DNA of 64,000 nt from Candidatus Poribacteria bacterium. GTDB lineage: Bacteria; Poribacteria; WGA-4E; WGA-3G. Positions 7,987-59,754 of this stretch are shown here, in pieces (position 1 is the first letter of the stretch; every line of letters starts with the position of its first letter). The DNA is taken from positions 736,001-800,000 of the forward strand of contig CAXXLX010000002.1 in the NCBI GenBank assembly GCA_963665235.2, written 5' to 3'. The notes beneath the pieces are model-generated. The model did no database searches. It was given only the letters and a program-made list of their open reading frames with translations, and was not told where the DNA came from. Position numbers and translations under genes: made by a program.

Positions 7987-9228
7987 ATGTCAAACGTGTT
8001 TGAAATATTAAAGGAACGCGGTTTCGTACAGCAGTGTACGAACGAAGAAGTTGTCTCTCGTCTATTGTCGGAGAATCAACTGACCTATTACATCGGTTTC
8101 GATGCAACAGCGGAGAGTCTTCATGCAGGGAGCCTCGTCCCAATTATGGCGATGGCACATCTGCAACGCGCCGGACATACGCCAATTGCAATCATCGGAG
8201 GGGGAACAACGATGATTGGCGACCCAACAGACAAAACCGAAATGCGACCGATGATATCCGCTGACCAGATCGAAATAAACGGCGCAGGCATCCTTGAACA
8301 GCTAAAGCGTTACCTGCATTTTGATAACGACGCAGGAATGTTCCTGAACAATGCCGAATGGTTGCTTTCGCTAAACTATATTGAATTCCTACGTGATATC
8401 GGTAAACATTTTCGCGTTAATGAGATGCTCCGAGCCGAAGGCTATCGACAACGGCTTGAACGCGAACTCGGACTCTCATTCCTTGAATTTAATTACCAAC
8501 TGCTGCAAGCTTACGATTTCTTGTACCTTTTCCGGCAGTATGGATGTGTTCTCCAACTCGGCGGCGATGACCAATGGGGCAATATCCTTGCAGGGGTTGA
8601 CTTGGTACGCAGGATTGAAGGCGAACGGGCACACGCGCTAACCTTTCCACTCTTAACAACAGCTAGCGGCACGAAAATGGGAAAAACGGCTGAGGGCGCA
8701 GTCTGGCTCGACGCGAACCGAGTATCCCCATACCAATTTTATCAATATTGGATTAACACCGATGACAGGGATGTCAAGCGATTCTTAGCCTATTTTACCT
8801 TCTTACCGATGGATGAAGTACACCGACTCGGCAGTTTGGAACATGATGAAATACGGGAGGCAAAAGCAGTACTCGCTTACGAAACCACGAAACTTGCACA
8901 TGGAAAAATTGAGGCAGACAAAGCACAAGAAACCTCTCGCGCCGCATTCGGCGGGGGCGGCCCTGTACTCGATGCAATGCCTACCACGACTATCTCTATA
9001 GACCGACTTAACGCAGGTATTCCGGTAATAGAGTTATTCCATGAAGTCGGGTTAACTACCTCGCGAAGCGAAGCAAGACGGCTAATCCAGCAAGGCGGGG
9101 CCTATATCAATGAGGACCAGTGTAAGGCAATAGATTTTGTTGTTAACACCAATCTGCTGGAAGAAAACGGTTTGCGCCTCCGTGCTGGCAAAAAACGTTA
9201 TCATCGCGTTGTGCTTGAGGACGCTTAG
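7987..9228 (+). CDS. tyrS: Tyrosine--tRNA ligase
   Basis: YIGFDATAESLHAGS (HIGH-like), LQAYDF, QLGGDDQWGNI, KMGKT and a C-terminal S4 domain. Confidence 0.97.
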   Translation: MSNVFEILKERGFVQQCTNEEVVSRLLSENQLTYYIGFDATAESLHAGSLVPIMAMAHLQRAGHTPIAIIGGGTTMIGDPTDKTEMRPMISADQIEINGAGILEQLKRYLHFDNDAGMFLNNAEWLLSLNYIEFLRDIGKHFRVNEMLRAEGYRQRLERELGLSFLEFNYQLLQAYDFLYLFRQYGCVLQLGGDDQWGNILAGVDLVRRIEGERAHALTFPLLTTASGTKMGKTAEGAVWLDANRVSPYQFYQYWINTDDRDVKRFLAYFTFLPMDEVHRLGSLEHDEIREAKAVLAYETTKLAHGKIEADKAQETSRAAFGGGGPVLDAMPTTTISIDRLNAGIPVIELFHEVGLTTSRSEARRLIQQGGAYINEDQCKAIDFVVNTNLLEENGLRLRAGKKRYHRVVLEDA

Positions 9229-9284
9229 GACAATTTAGATGCAGACTACAAATTATATAAGTTTTGTGTAAAAAATAAAAAAAT

Positions 9285-9313
9285 TTGACTTGCATCATAA
9301 ATTGTGTTATAAT
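9285..9313 (+). promoter_or_regulatory. sigma70 promoter of the leader-aroF-leuA operon
   Basis: TTGACT-17 nt-TATAAT. Confidence 0.8.
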
Positions 9314-9376
9314 ATAATTTGTTTGTTTCTCTTAAACACTTTTTTACGTATAACGTCTTAATAGGAATTTTAAATA

Positions 9377-9511
9377 ATGCAAACGTGTGAACGGACTATC
9401 ATCACTACAGCACAGCGCACAGCGGCATTTTCACGGGCTGGCTATTTTTACCTTTGGGCACTTTTTACGCTCGGGTTATACCCGTACTTGTACTGCGGCC
9501 GCCGGTGGTGA
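9377..9511 (+). CDS. Attenuator leader peptide, 44 aa (MQTCERTIITTAQRTAAFSRAGYFYLWALFTLGLYPYLYCGRRW)
   Basis: AGGA precedes the ATG. 15 of the last 27 codons are Phe, Tyr, Trp or Leu. The ORF lies between the promoter and the terminator upstream of aroF-leuA. Confidence 0.8.
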   Translation: MQTCERTIITTAQRTAAFSRAGYFYLWALFTLGLYPYLYCGRRW

Positions 9512-9548
9512 TAGTGCGTAAGCGCATAAAATGATACTTTAACTAACA

Positions 9549-9593
9549 CCGCCCAAGGCCAAAATCAATTCGGCCTTGGGCGGGTATTTTTTT
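9549..9593 (+). terminator. Attenuator terminator hairpin
   Basis: CCGCCCAAGGCC/GGCCTTGGGCGG 12-bp stem plus T7. The 5' arm can alternatively pair with 9497-9515. Confidence 0.85.
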
Positions 9594-9656
9594 AACGGAC
9601 CCGTAGTATTGATTTGAATTTGAATCAGAATTATTTTTTGGAGGAAATAGAGAACC

Positions 9657-10673
9657 ATGGTAATCGTTACGAAAACGGATGCCACCCCTGCTAATATTGA
9701 CGCGGTTGTCAAACGGATTGAAGACGCAGGGTTGAAAGCACAAGTGTCAACTGGTGAACAACGCACCGTAATCGGTGTTATAGGCGATAAATCATTACTT
9801 GGCGATATTCCGCTGGAATCCATGTCCGGTGTTGAACGCACAATGCCGATTACTGCCCCGTTTAAGTTAGCAAGCCGCGAATTTCGGAAGGAACCCACGG
9901 TTATCGCTTCCAATGGCACAAAAATTGGAGGCCGACGGTTGGCAGTTATGGCGGGACCGTGTGCAGTAGAAAGTACAGAACAAATCGTAACTATTGCACA
10001 GCACGTGAAAAAAGCAGGTGCCGGTTTTATTAGAGGCGGTGCATTTAAACCGCGCACAGGGCCTTACAGTTTCCAAGGCTTCGGAGCAGACGCACTCAAA
10101 ATGCTGGTCGCCGCGAAAGAAGAGACAGGCTTGGGCATCGTCACCGAAGTCATGACACCGCATGAGGTTGACCTCGTTGGTGAATATACAGACATCTTTC
10201 AACTCGGCACGCGGAACATGACCAATTTCTACCTATTACGCGAAGTGGGACGCGCGCAAAAACCTGTTATCCTAAAGCGTGGCCTCGCTTCAACGATTGA
10301 GGAATGGTTGCTTGCCGCCGAATATATCCTCGCTGAAGGAAATCCAGATGTCATGCTGTGTGAACGCGGCATCCGTACCTTTGAACCCCGCACCCGAAAC
10401 ACACTTGACCTCAACGCGGTCCCCCTCATTCACGAGCTGAGTCATCTCCCCATCATCGTCGATCCGAGCCACGGCACCGGCATTCGAAGTCTGGTGTGCG
10501 ATATGACAAAAGCCTCCGTCGCAGCAGGCGCGGACGGTTTACTGCTCGAAGTTCATCACGACCCTGATCGGTCCATGACAGGGGATGGGGCACAGTCGCT
10601 GTTCCCGGATCAATTTGAAACGTTGATGCGCGAACTCAAACCGATTGCTATCGCTGTCGGTCGAGAAATTTAA
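9657..10673 (+). CDS. aroF: 3-deoxy-7-phosphoheptulonate (DAHP) synthase, class I-beta with N-terminal regulatory domain
   Basis: Motifs [29 protein letters not shown] and DPSHGTG. Confidence 0.93.
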
Positions 10674-10734
10674 GCAGATACAACGGCGAGCATCTCCTAT
10701 TGAGAGGGGATACGTTTCTTGGAGGAAAACAGCC

Positions 10735-12288
10735 GTGACTGATTTTGAAACTAACCAAGACAAGGTTTACATTTTTGATACAACGCTACGCGATGCTGAG
10801 CAGACCCCCGGAGCCGCCCTCGGTATTGAGGAAAAGCTGGAGATTGCCAAACATCTCGCTAAGCTCAACGTCGATGTCATTGAAGCTGGCTTTCCGATTT
10901 CATCGCCCGGTGATTTTGACGCGGTACAACGGATAGCTAACGAGGTTGAAGGGCCCGAAATTTGCGCGCTTTCCCGCGTTGTGGAGAAAGACATTACAGC
11001 CGCCTGGAAAGCAATTCAGGACGCGCCCCGAGCACGTATCCATACATTTGTGGGCACATCTTCCATTCACATGGAACGTATCACACGCACAACCCCAGAA
11101 CGAACGTTACAGATGGCGGTTGATGCTGTCGCTTACGCAAAGAGTTTATGTGCTGAACACCCAGATGCCACCGTCGAGTTTTCACCGATGGACGCAGGAC
11201 GGACTGAGCTGGCGTACCTCTACAAAGTGGTCGAAGCTACTATTGCCGCAGGCGCGACCGTTGTTAACATCCCAGAAACCGTCGGATGGACGGTGCCATC
11301 GGAGTTTGGTGACCTGATTAAAGGTATCATGGAGAATGTACCGAACGTTAACGATGCCATTATTAGTGTCCACTGTCATAACGATTTAGGATTAGCAGTG
11401 GCAAACAGCCTGAGTGCAATTGAACAGGGCGCGCGGCAGGTAGAGTGCACTATCAACGGGCTCGGTGAACGGGCGGGGAATACATCCCTAGAAGAGATTG
11501 TCATGGCAATCCGAACCCGGCGAGACTACTTCAAAACGTACTACACCGATATTAACACCAAAGAAATTGTACCCATCAGCAAGCGAGTGAGCCGCACCAT
11601 GGGGATTGCGGTGCAACCGAATAAGGCAATTGTAGGCGAGAACGCTTTTGCACACAGTTCGGGCATTCATCAAGATGGCATTATTAAGTCGCGTGTAACG
11701 TTTGAAATCATCGACCCGAAAGAGGTTGGGTGGCAAGAGAGCCAGCTGATTCTCAGCCCACGCTCCGGACGCAATGCTCTGCGACACCGTCTCAGTGAAC
11801 TCGGTTACGAAATCGCACCGGAACAACTGGAGAAGGTTTATGAACGATTTCTGCGGGTTGCCGACAAGAAAAAAGCGGTACACGATGCGGACCTTGAAGC
11901 GATTATGAGCGATGAGATTCGCGCAGTACCCGCTGTCTTCGAATTGGACTACATTCAGGTAGTGAGTGGGACAAAGATTGCGTCTACAACCACGGTCGGG
12001 ATTCAGACAGAGGAAGGCATTGTGGAAAATGCTGCCACGGGGGATGGACCGGTTGATGCCGCCTTTAAGGCGATTAACCAGATTGTCAAAATTCAACTGA
12101 ACCTGATCGATTACCAGCTCCGTTCTGTGACGGAAGGCGAAGATGCCATCGGTGAGGTCATGTTGAAGATACAGGACAACGGACACATCATCACAGGGCA
12201 CGGCGCAAGCACAGACATTATTGAAGCGAGTGCAAAGGCGTATATCCACGCTGTCAATAAGTTAATTCAACTCCGCGCAGAGGGATAA
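10735..12288 (+). CDS. leuA: 2-isopropylmalate synthase
   Basis: FDTTLRD, HCHNDLG, GLGERAGN, HSSGIHQDG and a C-terminal GDGPVDA regulatory domain. GTG start after GGAGG. Confidence 0.93.
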   Translation: MTDFETNQDKVYIFDTTLRDAEQTPGAALGIEEKLEIAKHLAKLNVDVIEAGFPISSPGDFDAVQRIANEVEGPEICALSRVVEKDITAAWKAIQDAPRARIHTFVGTSSIHMERITRTTPERTLQMAVDAVAYAKSLCAEHPDATVEFSPMDAGRTELAYLYKVVEATIAAGATVVNIPETVGWTVPSEFGDLIKGIMENVPNVNDAIISVHCHNDLGLAVANSLSAIEQGARQVECTINGLGERAGNTSLEEIVMAIRTRRDYFKTYYTDINTKEIVPISKRVSRTMGIAVQPNKAIVGENAFAHSSGIHQDGIIKSRVTFEIIDPKEVGWQESQLILSPRSGRNALRHRLSELGYEIAPEQLEKVYERFLRVADKKKAVHDADLEAIMSDEIRAVPAVFELDYIQVVSGTKIASTTTVGIQTEEGIVENAATGDGPVDAAFKAINQIVKIQLNLIDYQLRSVTEGEDAIGEVMLKIQDNGHIITGHGASTDIIEASAKAYIHAVNKLIQLRAEG

Positions 12289-18529: not shown

Positions 18530-21247
18530 CTAAAGTGGCTCTAACCTGACCGGGCACACCTTCAATTCGGCAGTGTGGGTAATCGGGTCGTATCCTGAAC
18601 CGGTCAATAAATTGACAGGCACATCCGCGAAACTGAAGCTGGCGAAAACGGTGCCGCGCGGGGAACGATTTGTCGCTTTGACTTTAATCGTGATACTTCC
18701 ACGGGCACTGCTCATTTTGCACCACTCCCCATCTGTCAAGTTCAATTTCTCAATATCGGCGGGATTCACCTCAAGTGTTTCTTCAGGTAACAGATAATCA
18801 ATCCCTTGTGCGCGTCCTGTTTGCGTGCGGGTGTGATAAGATGCTAGTCTCCTACCTGTCGTTAGCCATATCGGGAACGTCTCGCTGATAGTTTCAGCGG
18901 GGTCGCGATAATGAACCGTTGAAAAGATGCCTCTTCCATTGACGAACGTTTCCTCATGCAGACGCGGTGTGCCGGGGTGCTCTTTATGCGGCACGGGCCA
19001 CTGATATTCCCCTCGTTCAATACGTTCCCAATCCAAACCTGCGTAAATCGGGGAAAGACGACAGAGTTCATTGAAAATCGGTTTCGGTGCGTCAAAATCG
19101 AAACCTTTGACCCCGAGCCGTTGTGCGATTTGACAGATAATCCACCAATCCGGTTTTGCTTCACCGGGGGGTGGTACCGCGGCACGCATCCGTTGGACGC
19201 GGCGTTCCGTGTTTGTGCAAGCCCCATCCGTTTCACCCCAGGCGGTTGCAGGAAGGACCACATCGGCAAGGGCTGCAGTTTCAGTCAAGAAAATATCAAT
19301 CACAACGAGGTGCGCCAACGAACGGAGGGCATGTTCACAATGTTCCCGGTCTGGATCGGAGAGTAGCGTGTTCTCTCCATCAATTAGCATCGCATGGATG
19401 CTGTCGCCACAGAGTTCCAAGGCGGTCACTTTTGTGATACCCTTCTCTAGGTCAATCTCTCTGCCGTAAGCCGCACCGAATTTCGCCCGGTTTTCCGGTG
19501 CTGTGACAGTTTGAAAACCGGGGTAGTTATTGGGTAATGCGCCGCTGTCCCCCGCGCCCTGTATATTATTCTGCCCACGCATCGGGTTGATACCTGTTCC
19601 CTCGCGACCGACATTTCCTGTCATCAGTGCAAGGTTGCACAAGCTTTGAACGTTCTCAACCCCACAAATATGCTCCGTGATACCGAGTGTATAGTAGATT
19701 GCCCCTCTGTTTGCTGTGCCGTACCATTTCGCTGCGGTTTCAATATCCTCGGCAGGTACGCCGGTGATTGTCTCCGCCCATTCCGGTGTCCACTGACTAA
19801 TATGCTCAAAGAAGTCATCAAATCCGGTGGTGCGATTTGCGATGAATTCTTCATTGATCAAACCGTCTCGTGCGATGACGTGCGCCATTCCTAAAAGCAG
19901 TGCTGTATCTGAACCGACGCGGAGGGGTAGATAGAGATGCGACAGATCCGCGAGCCCGATACGCCTCGGATCGGCGACGATGAGTTTTGCGCCGCGGGCA
20001 ATCGCTTTCTTGAGCCCCGTCGCTGCAACAGGATGGCACTCTGTCATATTTGTGCCGATACAGAAGATAACATCCGGTTTCTGCATATCGACGAGCGGGT
20101 TAGACATTGCCCCACGTCCGATTGTCGCTGCCAGCCCGGCAACGGTGGGGGCATGTCAGGCACGGCTGCAATTGTCAATATAGTTCGTGCCGAACCCTGC
20201 GCGGATAAACTTCTGCATGAGATATGCGGCTTCACTCGGTGCACGCCCGGAGGCGATACCGTAGATGCTATGTCTGCCGTGTTCCGCATTGGCTTTCCTG
20301 AACCCTTCGGCAGCCCTATCCAGCGCGTCCTCCCACGTGGTCGCGTGTAGTTCACCATCTTCACCACGCACCAGCGGTGTTTTCAAGCGGTCCGGGTGTT
20401 GCACGAAGTCGTAAGCGAACTGCCCTTTAACACAGAGTGCGCCTTGATTGGCTGGCCCGTCCATCGCTGGATGAATGCCGACGATTTTCTCGTCTTTTGT
20501 AAGCACATCGACCGAGCAACCGACCCCACAATAGGCACATATCGTTCGCGTCTTGTCAATAGCGTTCGAAGTCGTAGGTACACCCTGTTGTGCTGTAGGT
20601 TCAGCAGCGCGTAGTGCTTTTTTATCTGCAAGCGCGCCTGTCGGGCAGGTCTGGATACACTGTCCACAGAAGGTGCATGCGGAGTCCTTGAGGGCCCCAT
20701 CAAATTCGGTCACAATCTGTGTATGAAACCCCCGGTTCATGACATTGATAGCGTGGTCGCCCTCCTGTTCCGCACAAACGCGTACACACCGATAGCAGGA
20801 GATGCAGAGTTCATAATCTCTGAGTATAAACGGATTTTCATCCTGTTTACTTGTGCCAGAGGTCTCACCTGTTATACGGGTGGTGTTAGCAGCGTATTTA
20901 TCACGGAGGGTTGCGAGTTCGCCAGAGGCATAGCCGCTCAAAGGGTCGACATCAACTTCACGATTTTCGCCAATAACCATTTCAAGTAGCGTTTTGCGGT
21001 ACGCCTCAATTGTGTCGGTTGCTGTGTGGACTACCATATCTGGGGTAGCTTTTGTTGTGCAAGCGGCTACGGGATTTCTTGCCCCCGCCAATTCAACGAT
21101 ACAAAGCCGACATCCGCCGAAGGGTTCAAGTCGGGGGTCGTAGCAGAGAGTCGGTATCTCCTTCTGATGGCGTTGTGCCACCTCAAGGACCGTTTCCCCC
21201 TCGGAGAATACAACCTCAACGCCATCAATTTCCATTTTATGTTTCAT
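18530..21247 (-). CDS. fdhF: Selenocysteine-containing formate dehydrogenase alpha subunit (2Fe-2S/4Fe-4S N-terminus plus Mo/W-bisPGD domain), with UGA at 20156-20158
   Basis: The two track ORFs are in frame and joined by DNCSRA-UGA-HAPTVAGL. CAYCGVGC and RGQNNIQG are present. A SECIS-like hairpin follows the UGA. Confidence 0.88.
20127..20158 (-). promoter_or_regulatory. Bacterial SECIS element
   Basis: UGA CAUGCCCCCACC GUUGCC-GGGCU-GGCAGC. Spacing and shape resemble the E. coli fdhF SECIS. Confidence 0.7.
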
Positions 21248-21275
21248 CGCGCTCACCTCACGCCGATAGACAATC

Positions 21276-22367
21276 CTATTCAGTCTTCGTAAAATCGATT
21301 TGCGGGACTTTGAGCTCACCAGCAAGGATTTTTGCTGCTGTTTCCTCAATCTTTTTTTGTACCGCTTCAGGCACCTTATCCTTCAATTTCGGATTATAGA
21401 CCATGGAGATTGCGTTGTCGGTTGACATTGTGTAAGTGTAAGGGTTCGATTTATCCGCTTTAAAGGTTCCCTCTTTCACATGCTTGGCAACGTCAACAAA
21501 TGCGCCCGGTGTAATCACAGCGTTAGCCAGTACAGTTTCTGGGGACACCACACTCTGGTCTCGGTTGGAGCCGAATGCGTAAACAACTTTTCCGGCAGTT
21601 TGTGCGGCTTTGACAGCTTCAAATACGCCGCGTCCGGCGGCATCCGCATTTGGGAAGATAAAGTCAATCCCTTCATCGATCTGCGCGCTTGCAAGTTCTT
21701 TACCCTTAACGCTGTTTTCCCAATCGCCGACATACCCGTAGCGGACCGCTGCGTCAGGGTTAACGCTTTCCACGCCCCCTTTAAACGCCATAAATGTGCT
21801 ATTAACAGATGGAATGTTCTGCCCGCCAATAACCCCGACTTTGTTTGTTTGCGTCATCATGCCTGCCATAATACCTAAAAGATAGGTTGCCTCTTCAAGC
21901 CGAAAGTTAATAGGGGCTATATTCGTTTGATAGGTCCCCCCGGATGTCGTAATGAAAACTGTTTCAGGAAAATCTGAAGCGACGGCCTTCGCCGGATCTT
22001 GATATTCATATCCATGTCCGAAGATGAGGTTATATTCTTCTGTTGCATAAGAGCGAAAATGTTCCTCCTGATCGGCGGGGGTTCGGCTTTCAACGTGACT
22101 AATTTTCGCGCCAAGCTCTTTTTCAATTGCGAGGAGTCCATCATAGGCGAGCGCGTTCCATCCTGCATCGCTAATAGAGGCAGGAAGAAGCATGGCCACC
22201 TTGAATTGGGTTTCCTGTGGCGTGTTGATTTGCTCTTTTTCCGTGTCGGTTTCGGCTTTCTTAGAAGAATCCGCACATCCGACCAGCACAAGACCGATTG
22301 CTAAAAGACATGCGCTGTATAACGCAGCGTGAAAGATGATTTTAATTGACCAATGTGTTTTTTTCAT
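21276..22367 (-). CDS. BMP family ABC transporter substrate-binding lipoprotein
   Basis: LVGC lipobox and motifs DAGWN, GHGYEY and YLLGIMAG. Confidence 0.88.
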   Translation of the reverse strand: MKKTHWSIKIIFHAALYSACLLAIGLVLVGCADSSKKAETDTEKEQINTPQETQFKVAMLLPASISDAGWNALAYDGLLAIEKELGAKISHVESRTPADQEEHFRSYATEEYNLIFGHGYEYQDPAKAVASDFPETVFITTSGGTYQTNIAPINFRLEEATYLLGIMAGMMTQTNKVGVIGGQNIPSVNSTFMAFKGGVESVNPDAAVRYGYVGDWENSVKGKELASAQIDEGIDFIFPNADAAGRGVFEAVKAAQTAGKVVYAFGSNRDQSVVSPETVLANAVITPGAFVDVAKHVKEGTFKADKSNPYTYTMSTDNAISMVYNPKLKDKVPEAVQKKIEETAAKILAGELKVPQIDFTKTE

Positions 22368-28103: not shown

Positions 28104-28463
28104 TTACCACTCTATATCCTCGAGAGATTGTGCCTCTAACACCTGCGTGAATATGGCATCTAGGCGTTTGAGGCTGCGCATCCTCCCGATTTTACGAGTA
28201 AGTTCATCCGGCACATCGTCGAACCGTGTGTGTAGGGTTTTCAGGGTAACCTCACGTTTCGCACGAACTTCACCGCGTTGTTCGCCGCGTTGTTCGCCGA
28301 TTTCTATTCCGCGTTGTTCGCCGATTTCTATTCCGCGTTGTTCGCCGATTTCTATTCCGCGTTGTTCGCCGCGTTGTTCGCCGCGTTGTTCGCCGATTTC
28401 TATTCCGCGTTGTTCGCCGGCTTTCATGCCATCCTCAAAAAGGGATTGGGCTATTGTTTGCAC
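28104..28463 (-). CDS. Putative internally initiated small Rpn C-terminal protein (RpnS)
   Basis: In-frame GTG at 28463, with AAGGAGG 8 nt upstream. Confidence 0.55.
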   Translation of the reverse strand: MQTIAQSLFEDGMKAGEQRGIEIGEQRGEQRGEQRGIEIGEQRGIEIGEQRGIEIGEQRGEQRGEVRAKREVTLKTLHTRFDDVPDELTRKIGRMRSLKRLDAIFTQVLEAQSLEDIEW

Positions 28464-29309
28464 TCTTGATTCCTCCTTCGCTCTAAGCGATTTATCCTCT
28501 ATCAAATCGTGAATCACATGAACTAAACCTTCACGCTCTTCACGCGGCCTACGACCAAAAATCAACATATACAGATACGACAAAACTTTGTCACGCTGGT
28601 TTGCTTCATCAGGGCCAAGCGATAGCAGACGCTCCACCGTTGAAACTATTGCCGAACGCAACGCCGCCTCACTCTCATGTTCCTGTTGTAATACCGTCAA
28701 ACCCCAACCCAACGGATGATCCGGCCCAGTCAACGTCTCCGCAGACGTGTGCTTCACATCTAACAACAGAAAACGACACTCCGGAACATATACGTCAAAA
28801 GGACCACGCGGCGTTGACAACTCACGCAACGACAACGGAGCTGACCATCTCCGGTCCCCTGTGTAAAACAGTATACCAATCACAGTTGGCAAACGCCACT
28901 CACTCAGAGGAAGCGACTTCGATTTATGCTCACTGAGATTCCTATCCCATATCTGCGACATATAAGAATGTAAACGATACGCCATTAGCGAGTCAACCGA
29001 TGACTGATGTTCTACCAACACATAAATAGGTAACGTCTCCCGTTCTGCCTCTGATTTGCCAACACCTTGAACTGGAACGCTATACAGCAAATCCGACTCC
29101 TCTTTTCGCAGATCCCTCGAAATAAAAGTCGTCTCCTGCTGAACAGCATTCTCAAAATCGAGATACGGCACAATGGGACTGTCAACGAGCTGCACGAGAC
29201 CCCGCAAGTTATACCAAGTGTCAAGAAGCCAAAGCGAGCTCCGCTCCGGAAATTGCCGTAGTTCTGAATAATCAAGCGCATCCAACCCGCTGGTTATTTT
29301 ATTGTTCAT
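28104..29309 (-). CDS. Rpn family recombination-promoting nuclease (YhgA-like)
   Basis: SDLLYSV...VLVEHQS (PD-(D/E)xK-like), LFYTG and a GEQR/GIEI C-terminal repeat tract. Confidence 0.85.
   Translation of the reverse strand: MNNKITSGLDALDYSELRQFPERSSLWLLDTWYNLRGLVQLVDSPIVPYLDFENAVQQETTFISRDLRKEESDLLYSVPVQGVGKSEAERETLPIYVLVEHQSSVDSLMAYRLHSYMSQIWDRNLSEHKSKSLPLSEWRLPTVIGILFYTGDRRWSAPLSLRELSTPRGPFDVYVPECRFLLLDVKHTSAETLTGPDHPLGWGLTVLQQEHESEAALRSAIVSTVERLLSLGPDEANQRDKVLSYLYMLIFGRRPREEREGLVHVIHDLIEDKSLRAKEESRVQTIAQSLFEDGMKAGEQRGIEIGEQRGEQRGEQRGIEIGEQRGIEIGEQRGIEIGEQRGEQRGEVRAKREVTLKTLHTRFDDVPDELTRKIGRMRSLKRLDAIFTQVLEAQSLEDIEW
28270..28420 (-). repeat. Coding 12-nt mosaic repeat (GGCGAACAACGC / GGAATAGAAATC)
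   Basis: Encodes the GEQR/GIEI tetrapeptide array. Confidence 0.85.
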
Positions 29310-51842: not shown

Positions 51843-52472
51843 ATGAAAGACATCGGAATTCTTCACGTTATCACAGATACAACGTTTCAGTCTCGGTTTA
51901 CGCACACCGAATTAGCAGAGCTGGCAATCCAAGGCGGCGCGGATACAGTTCAATTGCGGGATAAACAGAGGACTACGCGTGAATTGGTAGAAATCGCACA
52001 AGGGATGCAGGCAATATGTGAAAGGCATGAGGTGCCCCTGATTGTGAACGATAGAGCCGATATCGCGCTGGCTGTTGGAGCAGCGGGGGCGCACTTTGGA
52101 CAGGAAGATATGCCCATCACAATAGGAAGACGCATCCTCTCCACAAAGGCTATCCTTGGGGCATCTGCTCGAACTGAAGAGAAAATACTCGTTGCAATTT
52201 CAGAGGGCGCAGATTACATCGGGTTTGGCCCCATCTATCGGACCGGATCAAAATCGGATGCAGAAACACCTAAGGGGTTGGCACGTCTCCGCCGAATTTG
52301 TGAAATTGCAACGTGCCCAGTTATCGCAATCGGGGGGATAACCCTGGAAACTGCAGCGGAGGTTATACGGACAGGGGCACACGGCATCGCTGTCATCTCT
52401 GCTGTGTGCGCGCAACCGGACCCGCGTATAGCAACGCAAGAACTGGTCCGAGAAATTCGCAACGCGAAATAA
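51843..52472 (+). CDS. thiE: Thiamine phosphate synthase
   Basis: Motifs QLRDK, IVNDRAD, HFGQED and AIGGI. Confidence 0.92.
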   Translation: MKDIGILHVITDTTFQSRFTHTELAELAIQGGADTVQLRDKQRTTRELVEIAQGMQAICERHEVPLIVNDRADIALAVGAAGAHFGQEDMPITIGRRILSTKAILGASARTEEKILVAISEGADYIGFGPIYRTGSKSDAETPKGLARLRRICEIATCPVIAIGGITLETAAEVIRTGAHGIAVISAVCAQPDPRIATQELVREIRNAK

Positions 52473-58097: not shown

Positions 58098-59348
58098 TTA
58101 CCGCCTCTTGGACGGTTTACTTGATATGAGTCCCGAAAACGGTGACCACGAATCAAGTCTACATAGGTTCGGATTATACCTGATACCTACGGGGGATACC
58201 ACCACCCCGACTACAGGGTTAAAAAGGTAACCCTGATACGCTGTGAGAATATTACTCGCACCCACTACATCTCTATGACCATGCCACCCGCATTTGGGGC
58301 ATTTATAGTTGCGTTTGACTGGTTTTTTGCGATTACCGCAACTTGGGCAGGTTTGAGAGGTATAGGCTTCGTTTTGGGTATCAACTTTGATACCAAGTGC
58401 TTTTGCTTTGTAGGTAATCATCTCTCTAAATTGAGAAAATGCCCACTGGTGTAACTTCTCATTGGCTTTTCTACCGTAGTTTATGGATTGTCGGATATGC
58501 TTAATATCACCAATAACAATCGTTTCTATCTTTCGCTTAAAGCAAGAAGAAACAAACCGTGATGTGATTTTGTGTCGCATGTCACGTAACTGCGACGCTA
58601 TTTTGAAAAGGAGTTTGTCTTTGGCGCGCTTGAGTTTTTTCCAACGCCGACTGCCTCGCTTGCATCTTGAGAGTTTACGGTTGAGACTCCCTTTGGACTT
58701 CTCGCGATACCGCACTTTACTGCGGTGTTCGCGTCCGTTGTAGATTTCGGCAGTGATACCGTCGAAAGCTGTGATTGGGTGTATTTCACCCATATCGACT
58801 GCAACGGCTGTCCCGTGTTTTATTTTTGGCTGTTTCGGTTGTGTTTGGTACGTTGCATGGAACTCATACGCTTTTGTTGTTTTGTTGTAGACAAGGGATA
58901 CTTCGGTTGGCACAATCTTATGGAATTTCTTGTCAACCTTGATATAAACAGCTTCGCGTCCTTGACCCATAGACAATCGGAGTCTGCCAAGTTTATAGGT
59001 GATACCCGTCGCACGCCAGGTGAAAGTGTGGAATTTATATGTCCGTTTGGGCGGCTTTGCCTTGGGATTAGATTTTTTATTGCAAAAGAAAGAACGCCTT
59101 GCACCGCAATAGTCGTCTATAACTGCCTGAACAGAATGCGCATGGCAGGGATACCGCTTAAACTTAAGATATTTCTTGAGGCCAGCATCGGACAACCAAA
59201 AACCCTTTTTGTTGTATGTTCTAAACGCAAGTGATACCGTTTTGGAATAGATTCGTCCACCGAGACGATTTATCGCGTCTAATTCCGATGTCGGTTTTGC
59301 TGTCGCTATAATGTAGGTTCGAAACGTTTTGGTATCCTTTTTAGACAT
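58098..59348 (-). CDS. tnpB: RNA-guided endonuclease TnpB
   Basis: AVDMGE (RuvC-I), VIGDI, EAYTSQTCPSCG, CPKCG and HRDVVGASNI (RuvC-III). ATG overlaps the tnpA end. Confidence 0.92.
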   Translation of the reverse strand: MSKKDTKTFRTYIIATAKPTSELDAINRLGGRIYSKTVSLAFRTYNKKGFWLSDAGLKKYLKFKRYPCHAHSVQAVIDDYCGARRSFFCNKKSNPKAKPPKRTYKFHTFTWRATGITYKLGRLRLSMGQGREAVYIKVDKKFHKIVPTEVSLVYNKTTKAYEFHATYQTQPKQPKIKHGTAVAVDMGEIHPITAFDGITAEIYNGREHRSKVRYREKSKGSLNRKLSRCKRGSRRWKKLKRAKDKLLFKIASQLRDMRHKITSRFVSSCFKRKIETIVIGDIKHIRQSINYGRKANEKLHQWAFSQFREMITYKAKALGIKVDTQNEAYTSQTCPSCGNRKKPVKRNYKCPKCGWHGHRDVVGASNILTAYQGYLFNPVVGVVVSPVGIRYNPNLCRLDSWSPFSGLISSKPSKRR

Positions 59349-59754
59349 GCTTTTGGTCCTCAATATACCTTTTGACAACTTCTAAGGAGGGGCTACCCAC
59401 AGATGATATGAATTTAGAACGCGTCCACAAATAAGGTAAGCGAGATTTTAGGCATGCGAATTCCTCACGGAGCACACTAGAGGTAAAACCTTTTATCAGC
59501 CCAACCTTCCGTGTAAATGGCACTTTGGGGTTGTTTTCTATTATCATAAGCACAGGGTCTTGCATAACCTCACTGGCACACACCTTAAAATCTGACTCGG
59601 TTTGTTTACAACAGATTAGCGGGTGCAAGCGTTTTTGTATCCGTTCGGTTAAAACCTGGCACCGATACTTCGGACACCAGAGGACAGGATACTGAAAACT
59701 GTAAACAAGGTTTGTCTCGGAGGACCAATGCTTTTCTCCATTCTTAATAAACAT
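59341..59754 (-). CDS. tnpA: IS200-type Y1 transposase TnpA with degenerate HUH motif
   Basis: WCPKYR, KGFTSS, LWTRS and YIEDQ are present. The expected DHVH reads DPVL. Confidence 0.8.
   Translation of the reverse strand: MFIKNGEKHWSSETNLVYSFQYPVLWCPKYRCQVLTERIQKRLHPLICCKQTESDFKVCASEVMQDPVLMIIENNPKVPFTRKVGLIKGFTSSVLREEFACLKSRLPYLWTRSKFISSVGSPSLEVVKRYIEDQKHV

Follow-up and report, generated by a model that had tools for sequence, protein, structure and literature searches.

The two-gene aroF-leuA operon of Candidatus Poribacteria is, to judge from comparative sequence analysis, very likely controlled by a ribosome-mediated (leader-peptide) transcription attenuator. The window analyzed here, a 64 kb stretch of a Poribacteria contig, carries on its + strand, on which all features described below lie, a leader ORF (9377..9511) that runs from ATG 9377 to TGA 9509-9511, with a second stop, TAG, immediately 3'. 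Its 44 codons encode MQTCERTIITTAQRTAAFSRAGYFYLWALFTLGLYPYLYCGRRW. The last 27 of them include 3 Phe, 5 Tyr, 2 Trp, and 5 Leu (15/27), counts on which the earlier note had built its case and which we reproduce; the share of these four residues in 35 large ORFs of the window, taken as background, is 18.1% (binomial P = 1.3e-5 for at least 15/27), and by Phe/Tyr/Trp/Leu content the leader ranks first among the 627 ORFs of 30-120 codons in the six frames of the window. Within the control-codon region (9443..9493; Y23 to Y39, YFYLWALFTLGLYPYLY), 13 of 17 codons specify Tyr, Leu, Phe, or Trp. Upstream lie a sigma-70-type promoter (9285..9313; TTGACT, a 17-nt spacer, and TATAAT with a TG extension; 11/12 hexamer matches), from which the transcript is expected to start near 9320, and a Shine-Dalgarno core, AGGA (9363..9366), 10 nt 5' of the leader ATG.

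The genes that follow encode the first-step enzymes named in the earlier note, and profile matches confirm both identities. aroF (9657..10673) encodes a type I-beta DAHP synthase with an N-terminal ferredoxin-like regulatory domain (DAHP_synth_1, 8.7e-73; DAHP_snth_FXD, 1.4e-21; NF006421, 467 bits); its product has full-length matches to solved DAHP synthases, e.g., 1rzm (E 3.7e-96), and the gene has its own ribosome-binding site, GGAGG, at 9640-9644. leuA (10735..12288) encodes a 2-isopropylmalate synthase with the LeuA allosteric domain and matches the NF002086 equivalog at 749 bits, against a cut-off of 532; citramalate and homocitrate synthase were rejected as identities, since those models score below their cut-offs and only leuA equivalog models pass. 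Alignment with relatives fixes the leuA start at GTG 10735, behind GGAGGA and 61 nt after aroF, and rejects the TTG at 10645 that appears in a mechanical ORF list. The Tyr/Leu codon content of the leader fits this pairing of genes. Pfam annotation of 40 further ORFs of the window found no other amino-acid biosynthesis operon, and for that reason no other leader-type attenuators are expected within the window.

Three competing helices can form in the leader RNA. Segment 2 (9497..9515, GGCCGCCGGTGGTGATAGT), the antiterminator 5' arm, covers the last codons and the stop codon of the ORF and pairs with segment 3 (9542..9560, ACTAACACCGCCCAAGGCC), the antiterminator 3' arm, at -26.2 kcal/mol (duplexfold). 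Segment 3 includes the 5' arm (9549-9560) of an intrinsic terminator (9549..9593), which has a 12-bp G+C-rich stem (9549-9560:9572-9583), an 11-nt loop, and a run of seven T (9587-9593), its hairpin folding at -27.9 kcal/mol; our + strand terminator scan was limited to loops of at most 8 nt and therefore missed it. The terminator and the pairing that competes with it are both present as first proposed. A third helix, which did not figure in the earlier note, joins segment 1 (9385..9406, codons 3-10, rich in Thr/Ile codons), a candidate anti-antiterminator arm near the ORF start, to 9503-9526 at -29.4 kcal/mol (duplexfold).

We infer that the ORF is translated and that ribosome stalling drives the switch. 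Transcription would start at the promoter near 9313, and a ribosome would translate the 44-codon leader. With ample charged tRNA-Tyr and tRNA-Leu (and probably tRNA-Phe), it would reach the stop codon and cover segment 2, which would free segment 3 to pair with segment 4 as the terminator and end transcription at ~9593. When either charged tRNA is scarce, the ribosome would stall in the Tyr/Leu run and leave segment 2 exposed; segment 2 would then pair with segment 3 as the antiterminator, excluding the terminator, and RNA polymerase would continue into aroF and leuA. Because a shortage of either Tyr or Leu would cause the stall, the switch would behave as an OR gate over two unrelated pathways. 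On RNA that is not being translated, or once the ribosome has been released, segment 2 is probably sequestered by its pairing with segment 1.

For comparison we kept 80 loci, 67 of Poribacteria type (aroF 75-91% identical) and 13 others. Upstream DNA is included in 66 of the 67 Poribacteria-type loci, and the leader is alignable in 65 of those 66, which with the window gives 66 aligned sequences. Every one of these 65 alignable relatives has a homologous leader ORF ahead of aroF, 41-84 codons long. The start codon is conserved (ATG in 65 of the 66 sequences, CTG at the aligned position in relative L059), and the leader frame is open in 66/66, compared with 13/66 and 3/66 for the other two frames. 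The ATG-to-TGG distance takes 17 distinct values, 15 of which are multiples of three, so that the frame survives many indels; the two out-of-frame length classes carry a 1-nt insertion after the control run. A strict AGGA, GGAG, or GAGG core lies 3-18 nt 5' of the conserved ATG in 44 of 67 sequences, and in the remaining 23 the aligned position carries a weaker purine run. In 26 of 67 sequences, the 160 nt preceding the leader ATG contain a promoter with at least 10/12 matches; in the other 41, no strong promoter was found in that interval. The leader travels with aroF and not with the upstream gene: aroF and leuA are adjacent at 66/67 Poribacteria-type loci (the single exception is truncated) versus 0/13 other loci, tyrS lies upstream in only 16/67, and the ORF was found solely before aroF-leuA, whatever the upstream gene. 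Conservation among relatives had been proposed as a check on the original reading; ORF, frame, Tyr/Leu run, antiterminator, and terminator are kept in 66/66, with covariation in both helices, and this comparison lends computational support to the claim that one translated leader before aroF-leuA couples aromatic and leucine supply.

The ORF might instead be an ordinary gene for a small hydrophobic protein that ends in its own terminator, with aroF-leuA expressed from a separate promoter. Gene callers have predicted it in public records, where it forms 85 clusters at 90% identity with 'hypothetical protein' as the sole functional name; the C-terminal half of the peptide is hydrophobic; and the spacer between terminator and aroF, which reaches ~300 nt in relatives, could conceal a second promoter. 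In the window, however, the T run ends just 63 nt short of the aroF ATG, an interval in which the promoter scan reported no promoter. A covarying helix joins the end of the ORF to the terminator 5' arm, which an independent gene would not need, and the exclusive placement before aroF-leuA, together with a peptide whose length and interior vary freely, likewise speaks against a protein function. We regard an independent protein gene as very improbable. A RiPP precursor was also rejected, the locus having no tailoring genes; the Poribacteria literature on 'leader peptides', in the excerpts available, concerns natural products.

Codon usage at the end of the ORF indicates which amino acids a stalling ribosome might report. 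In the last 16 codons of the 66 leaders (1056 codons), Tyr accounts for 279 (26%) and Leu for 253 (24%). The control run of the relatives takes the form (F)YLYLYLY(LY), Tyr and Leu alternating at the ORF end: among the 61 sequences tabulated, position -6 from the stop is always Tyr (61/61), positions -8 and -10 are always aromatic, either Tyr or Phe (61/61), and Leu occupies positions -7, -9, -11, and -13 in 43 to 59. Phe is frequent in the run, often replacing Tyr. Third positions vary while the residue is kept, with synonymous variation for both main residues (TAC 154 and TAT 125 for Tyr, and six codons for Leu, over the 66 sequences). One internal Trp codon is at least 90% conserved among leaders; the terminal one, being part of the antiterminator arm, cannot act as a control codon. 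The pattern suggests that mainly Tyr and Leu would be sensed, probably Phe as well, and that sensing of Trp is doubtful. Of the four-amino-acid sensing originally claimed, the dominance of Tyr and Leu and the frequency of Phe stand, whereas equal weights and a role for the terminal Trp do not.

Alignment of the 66 sequences supports both arms of the proposed switch. The terminator helix is 99.0% paired, with 3 pairs changed on both sides, and 0/500 shuffles reach the observed covariation; the window terminator has a sequence different from that of relatives and the same architecture. In the antiterminator (alignment columns 344-348:432-436 and 353-360:421-428), 97.7% of cells pair, and again 0/500 shuffles reach the observed covariation; columns 345/435, for example, hold an A-U pair in 38 sequences and a G-C pair in 20. 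Run on the whole alignment, RNAalifold returned only the terminator and a non-overlapping 2:3 register; the 2:3 register that overlaps the terminator and an outer 5-bp helix come from a conserved-complementarity scan and were then counted. The core of the 1:2 helix is 97.2% pairable, with no covariation beyond chance (the observed value was reached in 289/500 shuffles), and MFE folds of the leader alone have segment 2 paired to nt +10 to +30 of the ORF in nearly all relatives. A 6-bp conserved complementarity between columns 34-39 (start-codon region) and 335-340 (last Leu-Tyr codons), 92% paired, crosses the 1:2 helix and may be a chance occurrence.

These RNA features could also belong to a direct sensor, that is, a riboswitch, a TRAP/PyrR-type protein-binding leader, or a T-box-like tRNA element, in which the open frame is incidental. 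The leader RNA is strongly structured (z = -3.4), segments 2 and 3 are nearly invariant in nucleotide sequence, and segment 1 tolerates Thr-to-Ile changes while keeping its pairing to G, which suggests constraint at the RNA level there. Against this stand the 15 of 17 in-frame length classes, the frame open in 66/66, and the synonymous variation of Tyr and Leu codons, all of which are hard to explain without translation, as well as a leader interior that varies greatly in length and sequence among relatives, unlike a ligand pocket. Rfam gave no family, T-box included (RF00230), at E up to 10 in 8800-10200, bar a chance miRNA match on the terminator, and we give a direct sensor little chance of being correct. 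A T-box or other known RNA family was rejected on the same local search. Gathering-level Rfam matches in the whole 64 kb window number 0, and none of the curated amino-acid leader families (Leu, Phe, Trp, His, and Thr leaders) matches in the window.

Parts of the peptide are conserved as well, namely an N-terminal MRTLERNTIxTQI, W-A-L-F-T in mid-peptide, and R-W just before the stop. Such conservation, in a leader of this length, would suit a TnaC-like regulatory peptide that, while still nascent, halts its ribosome in response to a free amino acid, with no sensing of tRNA charging. The C-terminal peptide is not conserved, however, in relatives whose stop has moved: L058 and L060 end in ...GWCQVR, L054 and L059 in ...RV[AV]KVR, and the GGUGG nucleotides are kept in all four, which indicates that the R-W-stop conservation acts at the RNA level. 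Arrest at the stop codon would moreover cover segment 2 and favor termination, the wrong sign for a biosynthetic operon, and the intrinsic terminator makes a Rho-based mechanism unnecessary. Nascent-peptide arrest is thus, in our estimate, highly unlikely.

Attenuation through tRNA charging, the reading we prefer, departs in some respects from the classical geometry that the earlier note had supposed. The antiterminator/terminator switch is there; the control codons, by contrast, sit just 5' of segment 2 and not in segment 1, the Tyr/Leu run beginning at least 12 codons downstream of segment 1 and hence outside the anti-antiterminator segment. The classical freeing of segment 2 is therefore not directly applicable. 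We computed nascent-RNA partition functions for the 66 sequences with the ribosomal A site at varying positions. Median antiterminator occupancy is 0.92-0.98 with the A site at codons -16 to -10 and 0.69 at -8; it falls to 0.60 when the A site reaches the invariant last Tyr (-6) and to 0.23 one codon later (-5), and is 0.00 at -4 and every codon after it through the stop. This boundary is partly built in, since masking segment 2 necessarily abolishes 2:3. The invariant last Tyr codon is the place where the ribosome starts to cover the antiterminator 5' arm. In most relatives the modeled antiterminator forms without a ribosome (median 0.88), which would imply that polymerase reads through when the RNA is untranslated, contrary to the behavior of classical attenuators. 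For the window sequence, the equilibrium model has the 1:2 helix winning at almost every ribosome position, with 2:3 occupancy of at most 0.15 except for 0.55 at codon -10; in a separate nascent-RNA model, segment 3 is paired at 0.8 only with segment 1 masked. In an equilibrium fold of the full leader including segment 4 the terminator dominates, and the nascent-RNA models were used instead.

Some known leaders, such as ilvL and thrL, respond to more than one amino acid, and classical leader peptides have roughly 14-32 codons. Like the classical enterobacterial attenuators (trpL, pheL, leuL, ilvL of ilvGMEDA, and thrL), the Poribacteria leader would combine a short translated ORF rich in product codons with mutually exclusive terminator and antiterminator, a ribosome at the stop that covers the antiterminator 5' arm, and a 1:2 helix that competes for segment 2. 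It differs from them in its greater length (41-84 codons), in the lack of any sequence or Rfam match, in control codons that alternate between Tyr and Leu beside segment 2 instead of forming a single-residue run in segment 1, in a 1:2 helix that spans almost the whole ORF, and in a predicted response to two amino acids whose pathways are unrelated but have their first enzymes fused into a single operon. We suggest, tentatively and as the less probable interpretation, a distinct architectural class: a long ORF enclosed by its own closing helix, its start pairing with its end, in which a stalled ribosome might defeat the 1:2 helix from inside the 1:2 loop, against segment 2, or through a queue reaching back to segment 1. 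A switch of this class would combine signals from two or more unrelated pathways (Tyr or Phe on behalf of aroF, Leu on behalf of leuA), with the Thr/Ile codons of segment 1 as a possible extra input, and would occur solely in a candidate phylum of sponge symbionts that has no described attenuator.

In Firmicutes, aro, tyr, and leu genes are often preceded by T-box leaders, which are tRNA-sensing riboswitches. They too sense tRNA charging through a terminator/antiterminator choice, and the GGUGG motif occurs also in the Poribacteria antiterminator arm; the Poribacteria leader, however, has neither specifier-loop architecture nor a T-box match and has a conserved, presumably translated ORF instead.

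Further comparisons come from other phyla. In Corynebacterium glutamicum, the aroR leader peptide, with Phe-Tyr-Phe, attenuates the aroF operon and responds to limitation for Phe and not Tyr (Neshat et al. 2014, as excerpted in the review PMC11802643). As described there, aroR resembles the Poribacteria leader in using mixed aromatic codons to attenuate a DAHP synthase operon and differs in phylum, in showing no detectable homology, and in having no Leu codons and no leuA in its operon. The same review excerpt describes LtbR, a joint regulator of leu and trp genes in C. glutamicum (PMC11802643); this is a precedent for cross-talk between leucine and aromatic supply, although one that operates via a protein. 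In Shewanella, the available portion of PMC2659441 gives a leuA attenuator with anti-antiterminator, antiterminator, and terminator and lists aroF as 'attenuator sensing tyr-tRNA'; these are separate leaders on separate operons in Gammaproteobacteria, as opposed to the one leader for both genes in Poribacteria. Leader-like ORFs before ilvB and leuA in Streptomyces coelicolor, according to the excerpted PMC1262725, failed codon-mutation tests, a precedent that by analogy would count against the attenuator reading. A 2010 survey (PMC2965389, in the part available) still held that, apart from the Firmicutes case it described itself, such leaders occur only in Proteobacteria and Actinobacteria. 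A literature search found no paper on a Poribacteria aroF-leuA leader, which, with the lack of an Rfam match, agrees with the earlier suggestion that the element is undescribed in this lineage.

If the attenuator reading is right, leader-peptide attenuation would extend to an uncultured candidate phylum of sponge symbionts and would there offer a clean case from nature in which a single attenuator serves two unrelated biosynthetic pathways as an OR gate, its alternating Tyr/Leu codon run mirroring the fused aroF-leuA operon. The leader would also give a testable hint on which amino acids limit these symbionts, and the placement of its control codons relative to the 1:2 helix could show ribosome position, and not simple masking, biasing co-transcriptional RNA folding. 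At least 85 database 'hypothetical proteins' could be re-annotated as leader peptides, and the 66 aligned sequences could seed an RNA-family model.

The classical layout, with control codons within the anti-antiterminator 1:2 hairpin, was found in one relative alone, L050 (aroF 75% identical), which has an unrelated 20-codon ORF, MPFLYFRYYSDGQQRVTETT, whose Phe/Leu/Tyr codons lie inside such a hairpin ahead of its own terminator.

Transcription attenuation by a leader peptide is the best-supported reading of how aroF-leuA is controlled here, and we regard it as likely. All elements lie on the forward strand. Downstream of the tyrosyl-tRNA synthetase gene tyrS (7987-9228, its end falling inside 9100-9900, upstream of the leader), a sequence match to a near-consensus promoter (TTGACT-17-TGtTATAAT, 9285-9313) is followed by an AGGA, read in the sequence 10 bases 5' of ATG 9377; this ATG opens a 44-codon leader ORF that ends at TGA 9509-9511, with a TAG directly after it, and encodes MQTCERTIITTAQRTAAFSRAGYFYLWALFTLGLYPYLYCGRRW. 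Next come a 12-bp G+C-rich hairpin (9549-9560:9572-9583) with seven T residues behind it (9587-9593), then GGAGG and the 338-codon DAHP synthase gene aroF (9657-10673) and, 61 nt past aroF, the 2-isopropylmalate synthase gene leuA, whose start is placed at GTG 10735 by alignment with relatives rather than at the TTG 10645 of a mechanical ORF list. Since the gene after leuA sits on the opposite strand, the transcription unit would be leader-aroF-leuA. Pfam and NCBIfam identify the aroF product as a type I-beta DAHP synthase with an N-terminal ferredoxin-like regulatory domain (DAHP_synth_1, 8.7e-73; DAHP_snth_FXD, 1.4e-21; NF006421, 467 bits), and solved DAHP synthases match it full-length; Tyr inhibition is known for enzymes of this kind. 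The second gene is, by model score, a bona fide 2-isopropylmalate synthase (equivalog NF002086, 749 bits vs. a cut-off of 532); an identity as citramalate or homocitrate synthase was rejected, both models scoring under their own cut-offs. Allosteric domains are carried by both products (Pfam).

The earlier note had proposed a Phe/Tyr/Trp/Leu leader, and its count of 3 Phe, 5 Tyr, 2 Trp, and 5 Leu in the last 27 codons is exact. Against a background of 18.1% for these four residues in 35 large ORFs of the window, at least 15 in 27 has a binomial P of 1.3e-5, and the leader ranks first by this content among the 627 six-frame ORFs of 30-120 codons in the window. Equally exact is the pairing that it had described between 9497-9515 and 9542-9560 (-26.2 kcal/mol), as is the 12-bp terminator (hairpin, -27.9 kcal/mol).

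To place the leader among its relatives, contigs of other genomes were scanned with the aroF protein; 388 of 484 candidate stretches were confirmed, and the best 80 of the 388 were kept. Of these 80, 67 are from MAGs of Candidatus Poribacteria, an uncultured phylum of sponge symbionts, or from "uncultured bacterium" MAGs of like (87-88%) identity, with aroF 86-91% identical except in one locus, L050 (75%); the other 13 are Chloroflexota or Paenibacillus (56-60%). These identities assign the window itself to a poribacterium. In the Poribacteria-type loci, leuA comes next after aroF in 66 of 67, the exception (L019) stopping 137 nt past aroF; in the 13 others it never does. Upstream DNA is present in 66 of the 67 loci (absent in L049). 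The earlier note proposed looking for the leader and its codon composition in relatives, and both recur: a homologous ORF of 41-84 codons with a conserved ATG and a Tyr/Leu-rich end is found in 65 of these 66 loci as well as in the window, ending 140-300 nt before aroF. The 65 leaders and that of the window form the 66-sequence alignment A1. Leaders of the window's subclade finish in ...LWALFTLGLYP(F/Y)LYCGGRW, and most others in ...(F)YLYLYLY(LY)(G/S)NDRW or ...LYLYLYLYSYARW. ORFs of this family have already been predicted by gene callers: the window peptide has one database entry (95% identical), and the commoner type has 85 database clusters that share the YLYLYLY ending, with "hypothetical protein" as the sole functional name.

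Four lines of comparative evidence say that the leader ORF is translated. Between the ATG and the TGG that precedes the stop, 17 different distances occur, 15 of them multiples of three, though not all are independent tests of frame because some indels are 6-nt or 36-nt slippage units that keep it automatically; in the two exceptions (L054 and L059) a 1-base insertion lies just 5' of the TGG, past the Tyr/Leu-rich control run, and a stop follows four codons on. The leader frame is open in 66/66 sequences, and the other two frames over an equal span in 13/66 and 3/66. Tyr (TAC 154, TAT 125) makes up 26% and Leu (TTG 77, CTG 72, TTA 47, CTC 33, CTT 19, CTA 5) 24% of the final 16 codons across the 66 leaders. 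In the 61 sequences with a common TGG-TGA anchor (L050, L054, L058, L059, L060, and L061 excluded), with codons numbered backward from the stop, position -6 is Tyr in all 61, position -10 is Tyr in 58 and Phe in 3, position -8 is Tyr in 47 and Phe in 14, and Leu occupies -7, -9, -11, and -13 in 47, 43, 59, and 55. Where the stop is lost or shifted (L054, L058, L059, L060, and L061), the peptide tail differs and the GGUGG nucleotides are retained. The pattern is one of constraint on the RNA at the leader's end and on codons further upstream.

A conserved-complementarity scan of A1 located the helices that these nucleotides would form. Besides the antiterminator (segments 2, 9497-9515, and 3, 9542-9560; 2:3) and the terminator (3:4), RNAfold reveals a third helix that the earlier note did not mention, formed between segment 1 (codons 3-10, at 9385-9406) and 9503-9526 (duplex energy, -29.4 kcal/mol) and enclosing the entire leader ORF in one domain (z = -3.4). 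The region therefore offers three alternative helices, comparable in strength, of which any one excludes the others. The terminator (A1 columns 426-437:448-459) has 12 pairs with 99% of cells paired; the antiterminator comprises an inner helix of 8 pairs (columns 353-360, GGUGGUGA, with 421-428, UCACCACC; 98%) and an outer one of 5 (columns 344-348:432-436; 96%), divided by a 3x3 internal loop and together spanning almost the whole 5' arm of the terminator; and the anti-antiterminator (1:2) core has 6 pairs (columns 54-59, ACCAUC, with 353-358, GGUGGU; 97%). This family architecture is that of the earlier note's GGCC-GCC-GGTGGTGATAGT and ACTAACACCGCC-CAA-GGCC, and the alternative stems that it proposed to look for in relatives are kept. 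Across A1, 97.7% of 858 antiterminator cells are paired, with 4 pairs changed on both sides (23 cells; at columns 345/435, 38 sequences have A-U and 20 have G-C), and 99.0% of terminator cells, with 3 pairs so changed; neither covariation score was reached by any of 500 shuffles, figures that are supportive rather than probabilities because the control is uncorrected for relatedness. The window terminator is unlike all relatives' in sequence but alike in shape and position. Covariation of the 1:2 core is no better than shuffles (289/500), though 97.2% of it is paired: segment 2 does not vary, and the only changes in segment 1 are C/U opposite G. When the leader is folded by itself, the minimum free energy structure of nearly all sequences has segment 2 paired to ORF nucleotides +10 to +30.

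The core of the earlier interpretation is supported. We propose that a ribosome at the leader stop would cover segment 2, so that the terminator forms and transcription stops near 9593, while one stalled on Tyr or Leu codons, and probably on Phe codons as well, would leave segment 2 free to sequester the 5' arm of the terminator, allowing aroF and leuA to be transcribed; shortage of either amino acid would be enough for read-through. The amino acids presumably sensed match the products, since aroF catalyzes the first step to Tyr, Phe, and Trp, and leuA the first committed step to Leu. In a nascent-RNA model of the 66 sequences (segment 4 unmade, 31 nt around the A site masked), median 2:3 occupancy is 0.92-0.98 with the A site at -16 to -10, 0.69 at -8, 0.60 at -6 (the invariant last Tyr), 0.23 at -5, and 0.00 from -4 to the stop, the loss upon masking segment 2 being a trivial outcome of the model. 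By this model the control run extends to the last ribosome position at which the antiterminator core is not yet covered. Two results count against the simple story: without a ribosome the antiterminator is predicted in most relatives anyway (median 0.88), and in the window the strong 1:2 helix dominates nearly all states, with 2:3 at or below 0.15 except for 0.55 at codon -10. In a related model of the window, pairing of segment 3 reaches 0.8 only when a ribosome occupies codons 2-16, the stretch holding segment 1. Five of the six sequence-level features of a leader-peptide attenuator are found, which places the locus in that class; the sixth, control codons within segment 1, is absent. The control codons lie at least 12 codons downstream of segment 1, and stalling might overcome the 1:2 helix in one of three ways. 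A ribosome within the 1:2 loop, directly against segment 2, might on steric and entropic grounds favor the local 2:3 hairpin over the long-range helix; the stalled ribosome might melt interior helices that stabilize the domain; or following ribosomes might sit on segment 1.

L050 (leuA 71% identical), the poribacterial locus that diverges most and in which the common leader has no homologue, carries before the same aroF-leuA operon (L050:2838-2974) an unrelated 20-codon ORF, MPFLYFRYYSDGQQRVTETT, starting MPFLYFRYY. The start of this ORF, with its Phe/Leu/Tyr codons, pairs as a hairpin with UAUAGUGAUGGGC, and the GAUGGGC in the latter complements the 5' arm of a strong terminator. As read from this single sequence, it is a classical compact 1:2/2:3/3:4 layout with the same kinds of codons.

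By mechanism, the closest known systems are the enterobacterial attenuators; by target gene, it is the Corynebacterium glutamicum aroR leader (Phe-Tyr-Phe) before aroF, which, in excerpts of the review PMC11802643, responds to limitation of Phe and not of Tyr, with the repressor LtbR connecting leu and trp genes in that species. The Poribacteria leader differs from known attenuators in lineage, leader length, an alternating two-amino-acid control run, cross-pathway operon logic, and an ORF-spanning closing helix. Excerpts of other papers list leuA and aroF attenuators separately in Shewanella (PMC2659441), confine leader peptides by 2010 to Proteobacteria and Actinobacteria plus that paper's new Firmicutes case (PMC2965389), and report for Actinobacteria no conserved RNA element ahead of Tyr or Phe genes, with a warning drawn from leader-like ORFs of Streptomyces coelicolor that failed mutational tests (PMC1262725). 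A full-text literature search, with most subscription journals outside it, returned no Poribacteria attenuator (an earlier description is possible) and no paper joining leader peptide, tyrosine codons, and attenuator; judged by title, none described an attenuated aroF-leuA operon, and the Poribacteria leader-peptide matches listed concern, by title and opening of the abstract, natural products only.

Rfam gives no gathering-level match in the 64 kb, the region upstream of thiE (51843-52472) included, and a permissive scan of 8800-10200 gives only a chance miRNA match on the terminator; a T-box identity was rejected, no Rfam family matching. The tyrS gene (7987-9228), the immediate 5' neighbor of the Tyr-rich leader in the window and found upstream in only 16 of the 67 related loci, is itself preceded by neither a T-box nor any other Rfam element. 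Segment 1 (A1 columns 45-68) is a Thr/Ile codon run (TIITT in the window, NTITTQI in most relatives) resembling thr-type control codons; this richness may be a mere by-product of complementing GGUGGUGA or a further input. Some relatives' leader ORFs (L012 and L021, A1 columns 181-252; proteins P0007, P0017, P0020, P0033, P0053, and P0082) contain extra tandem copies of a hairpin-capable 36-nt, 12-codon module, LASKNLLLKS[AT][RQ], on top of the related unit LASSSLLLKG of most leaders, each copy keeping the frame and adding about four Leu codons. The aroF-leuA spacer, with a small hairpin at 10692-10711 in the window, measures about 20 to 290 nt in relatives and in some (L023:4015-4250, L058, and L062) bears tandem or inverted repeats, such as those of GGTTACTGGCTACTG in L023. 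Elsewhere in the window, on the minus strand, are a YhgA-like transposase gene (28104-29309), a TnpB/OrfB_IS605-type gene (58098-59378), and a formate dehydrogenase-like molybdopterin oxidoreductase (18530-21349) in two ORFs split by an in-frame TGA (20156-20158; ...NCSRA-TGA-HAPTVAGL), a TGA with the look of a selenocysteine codon and not of a disrupted gene.
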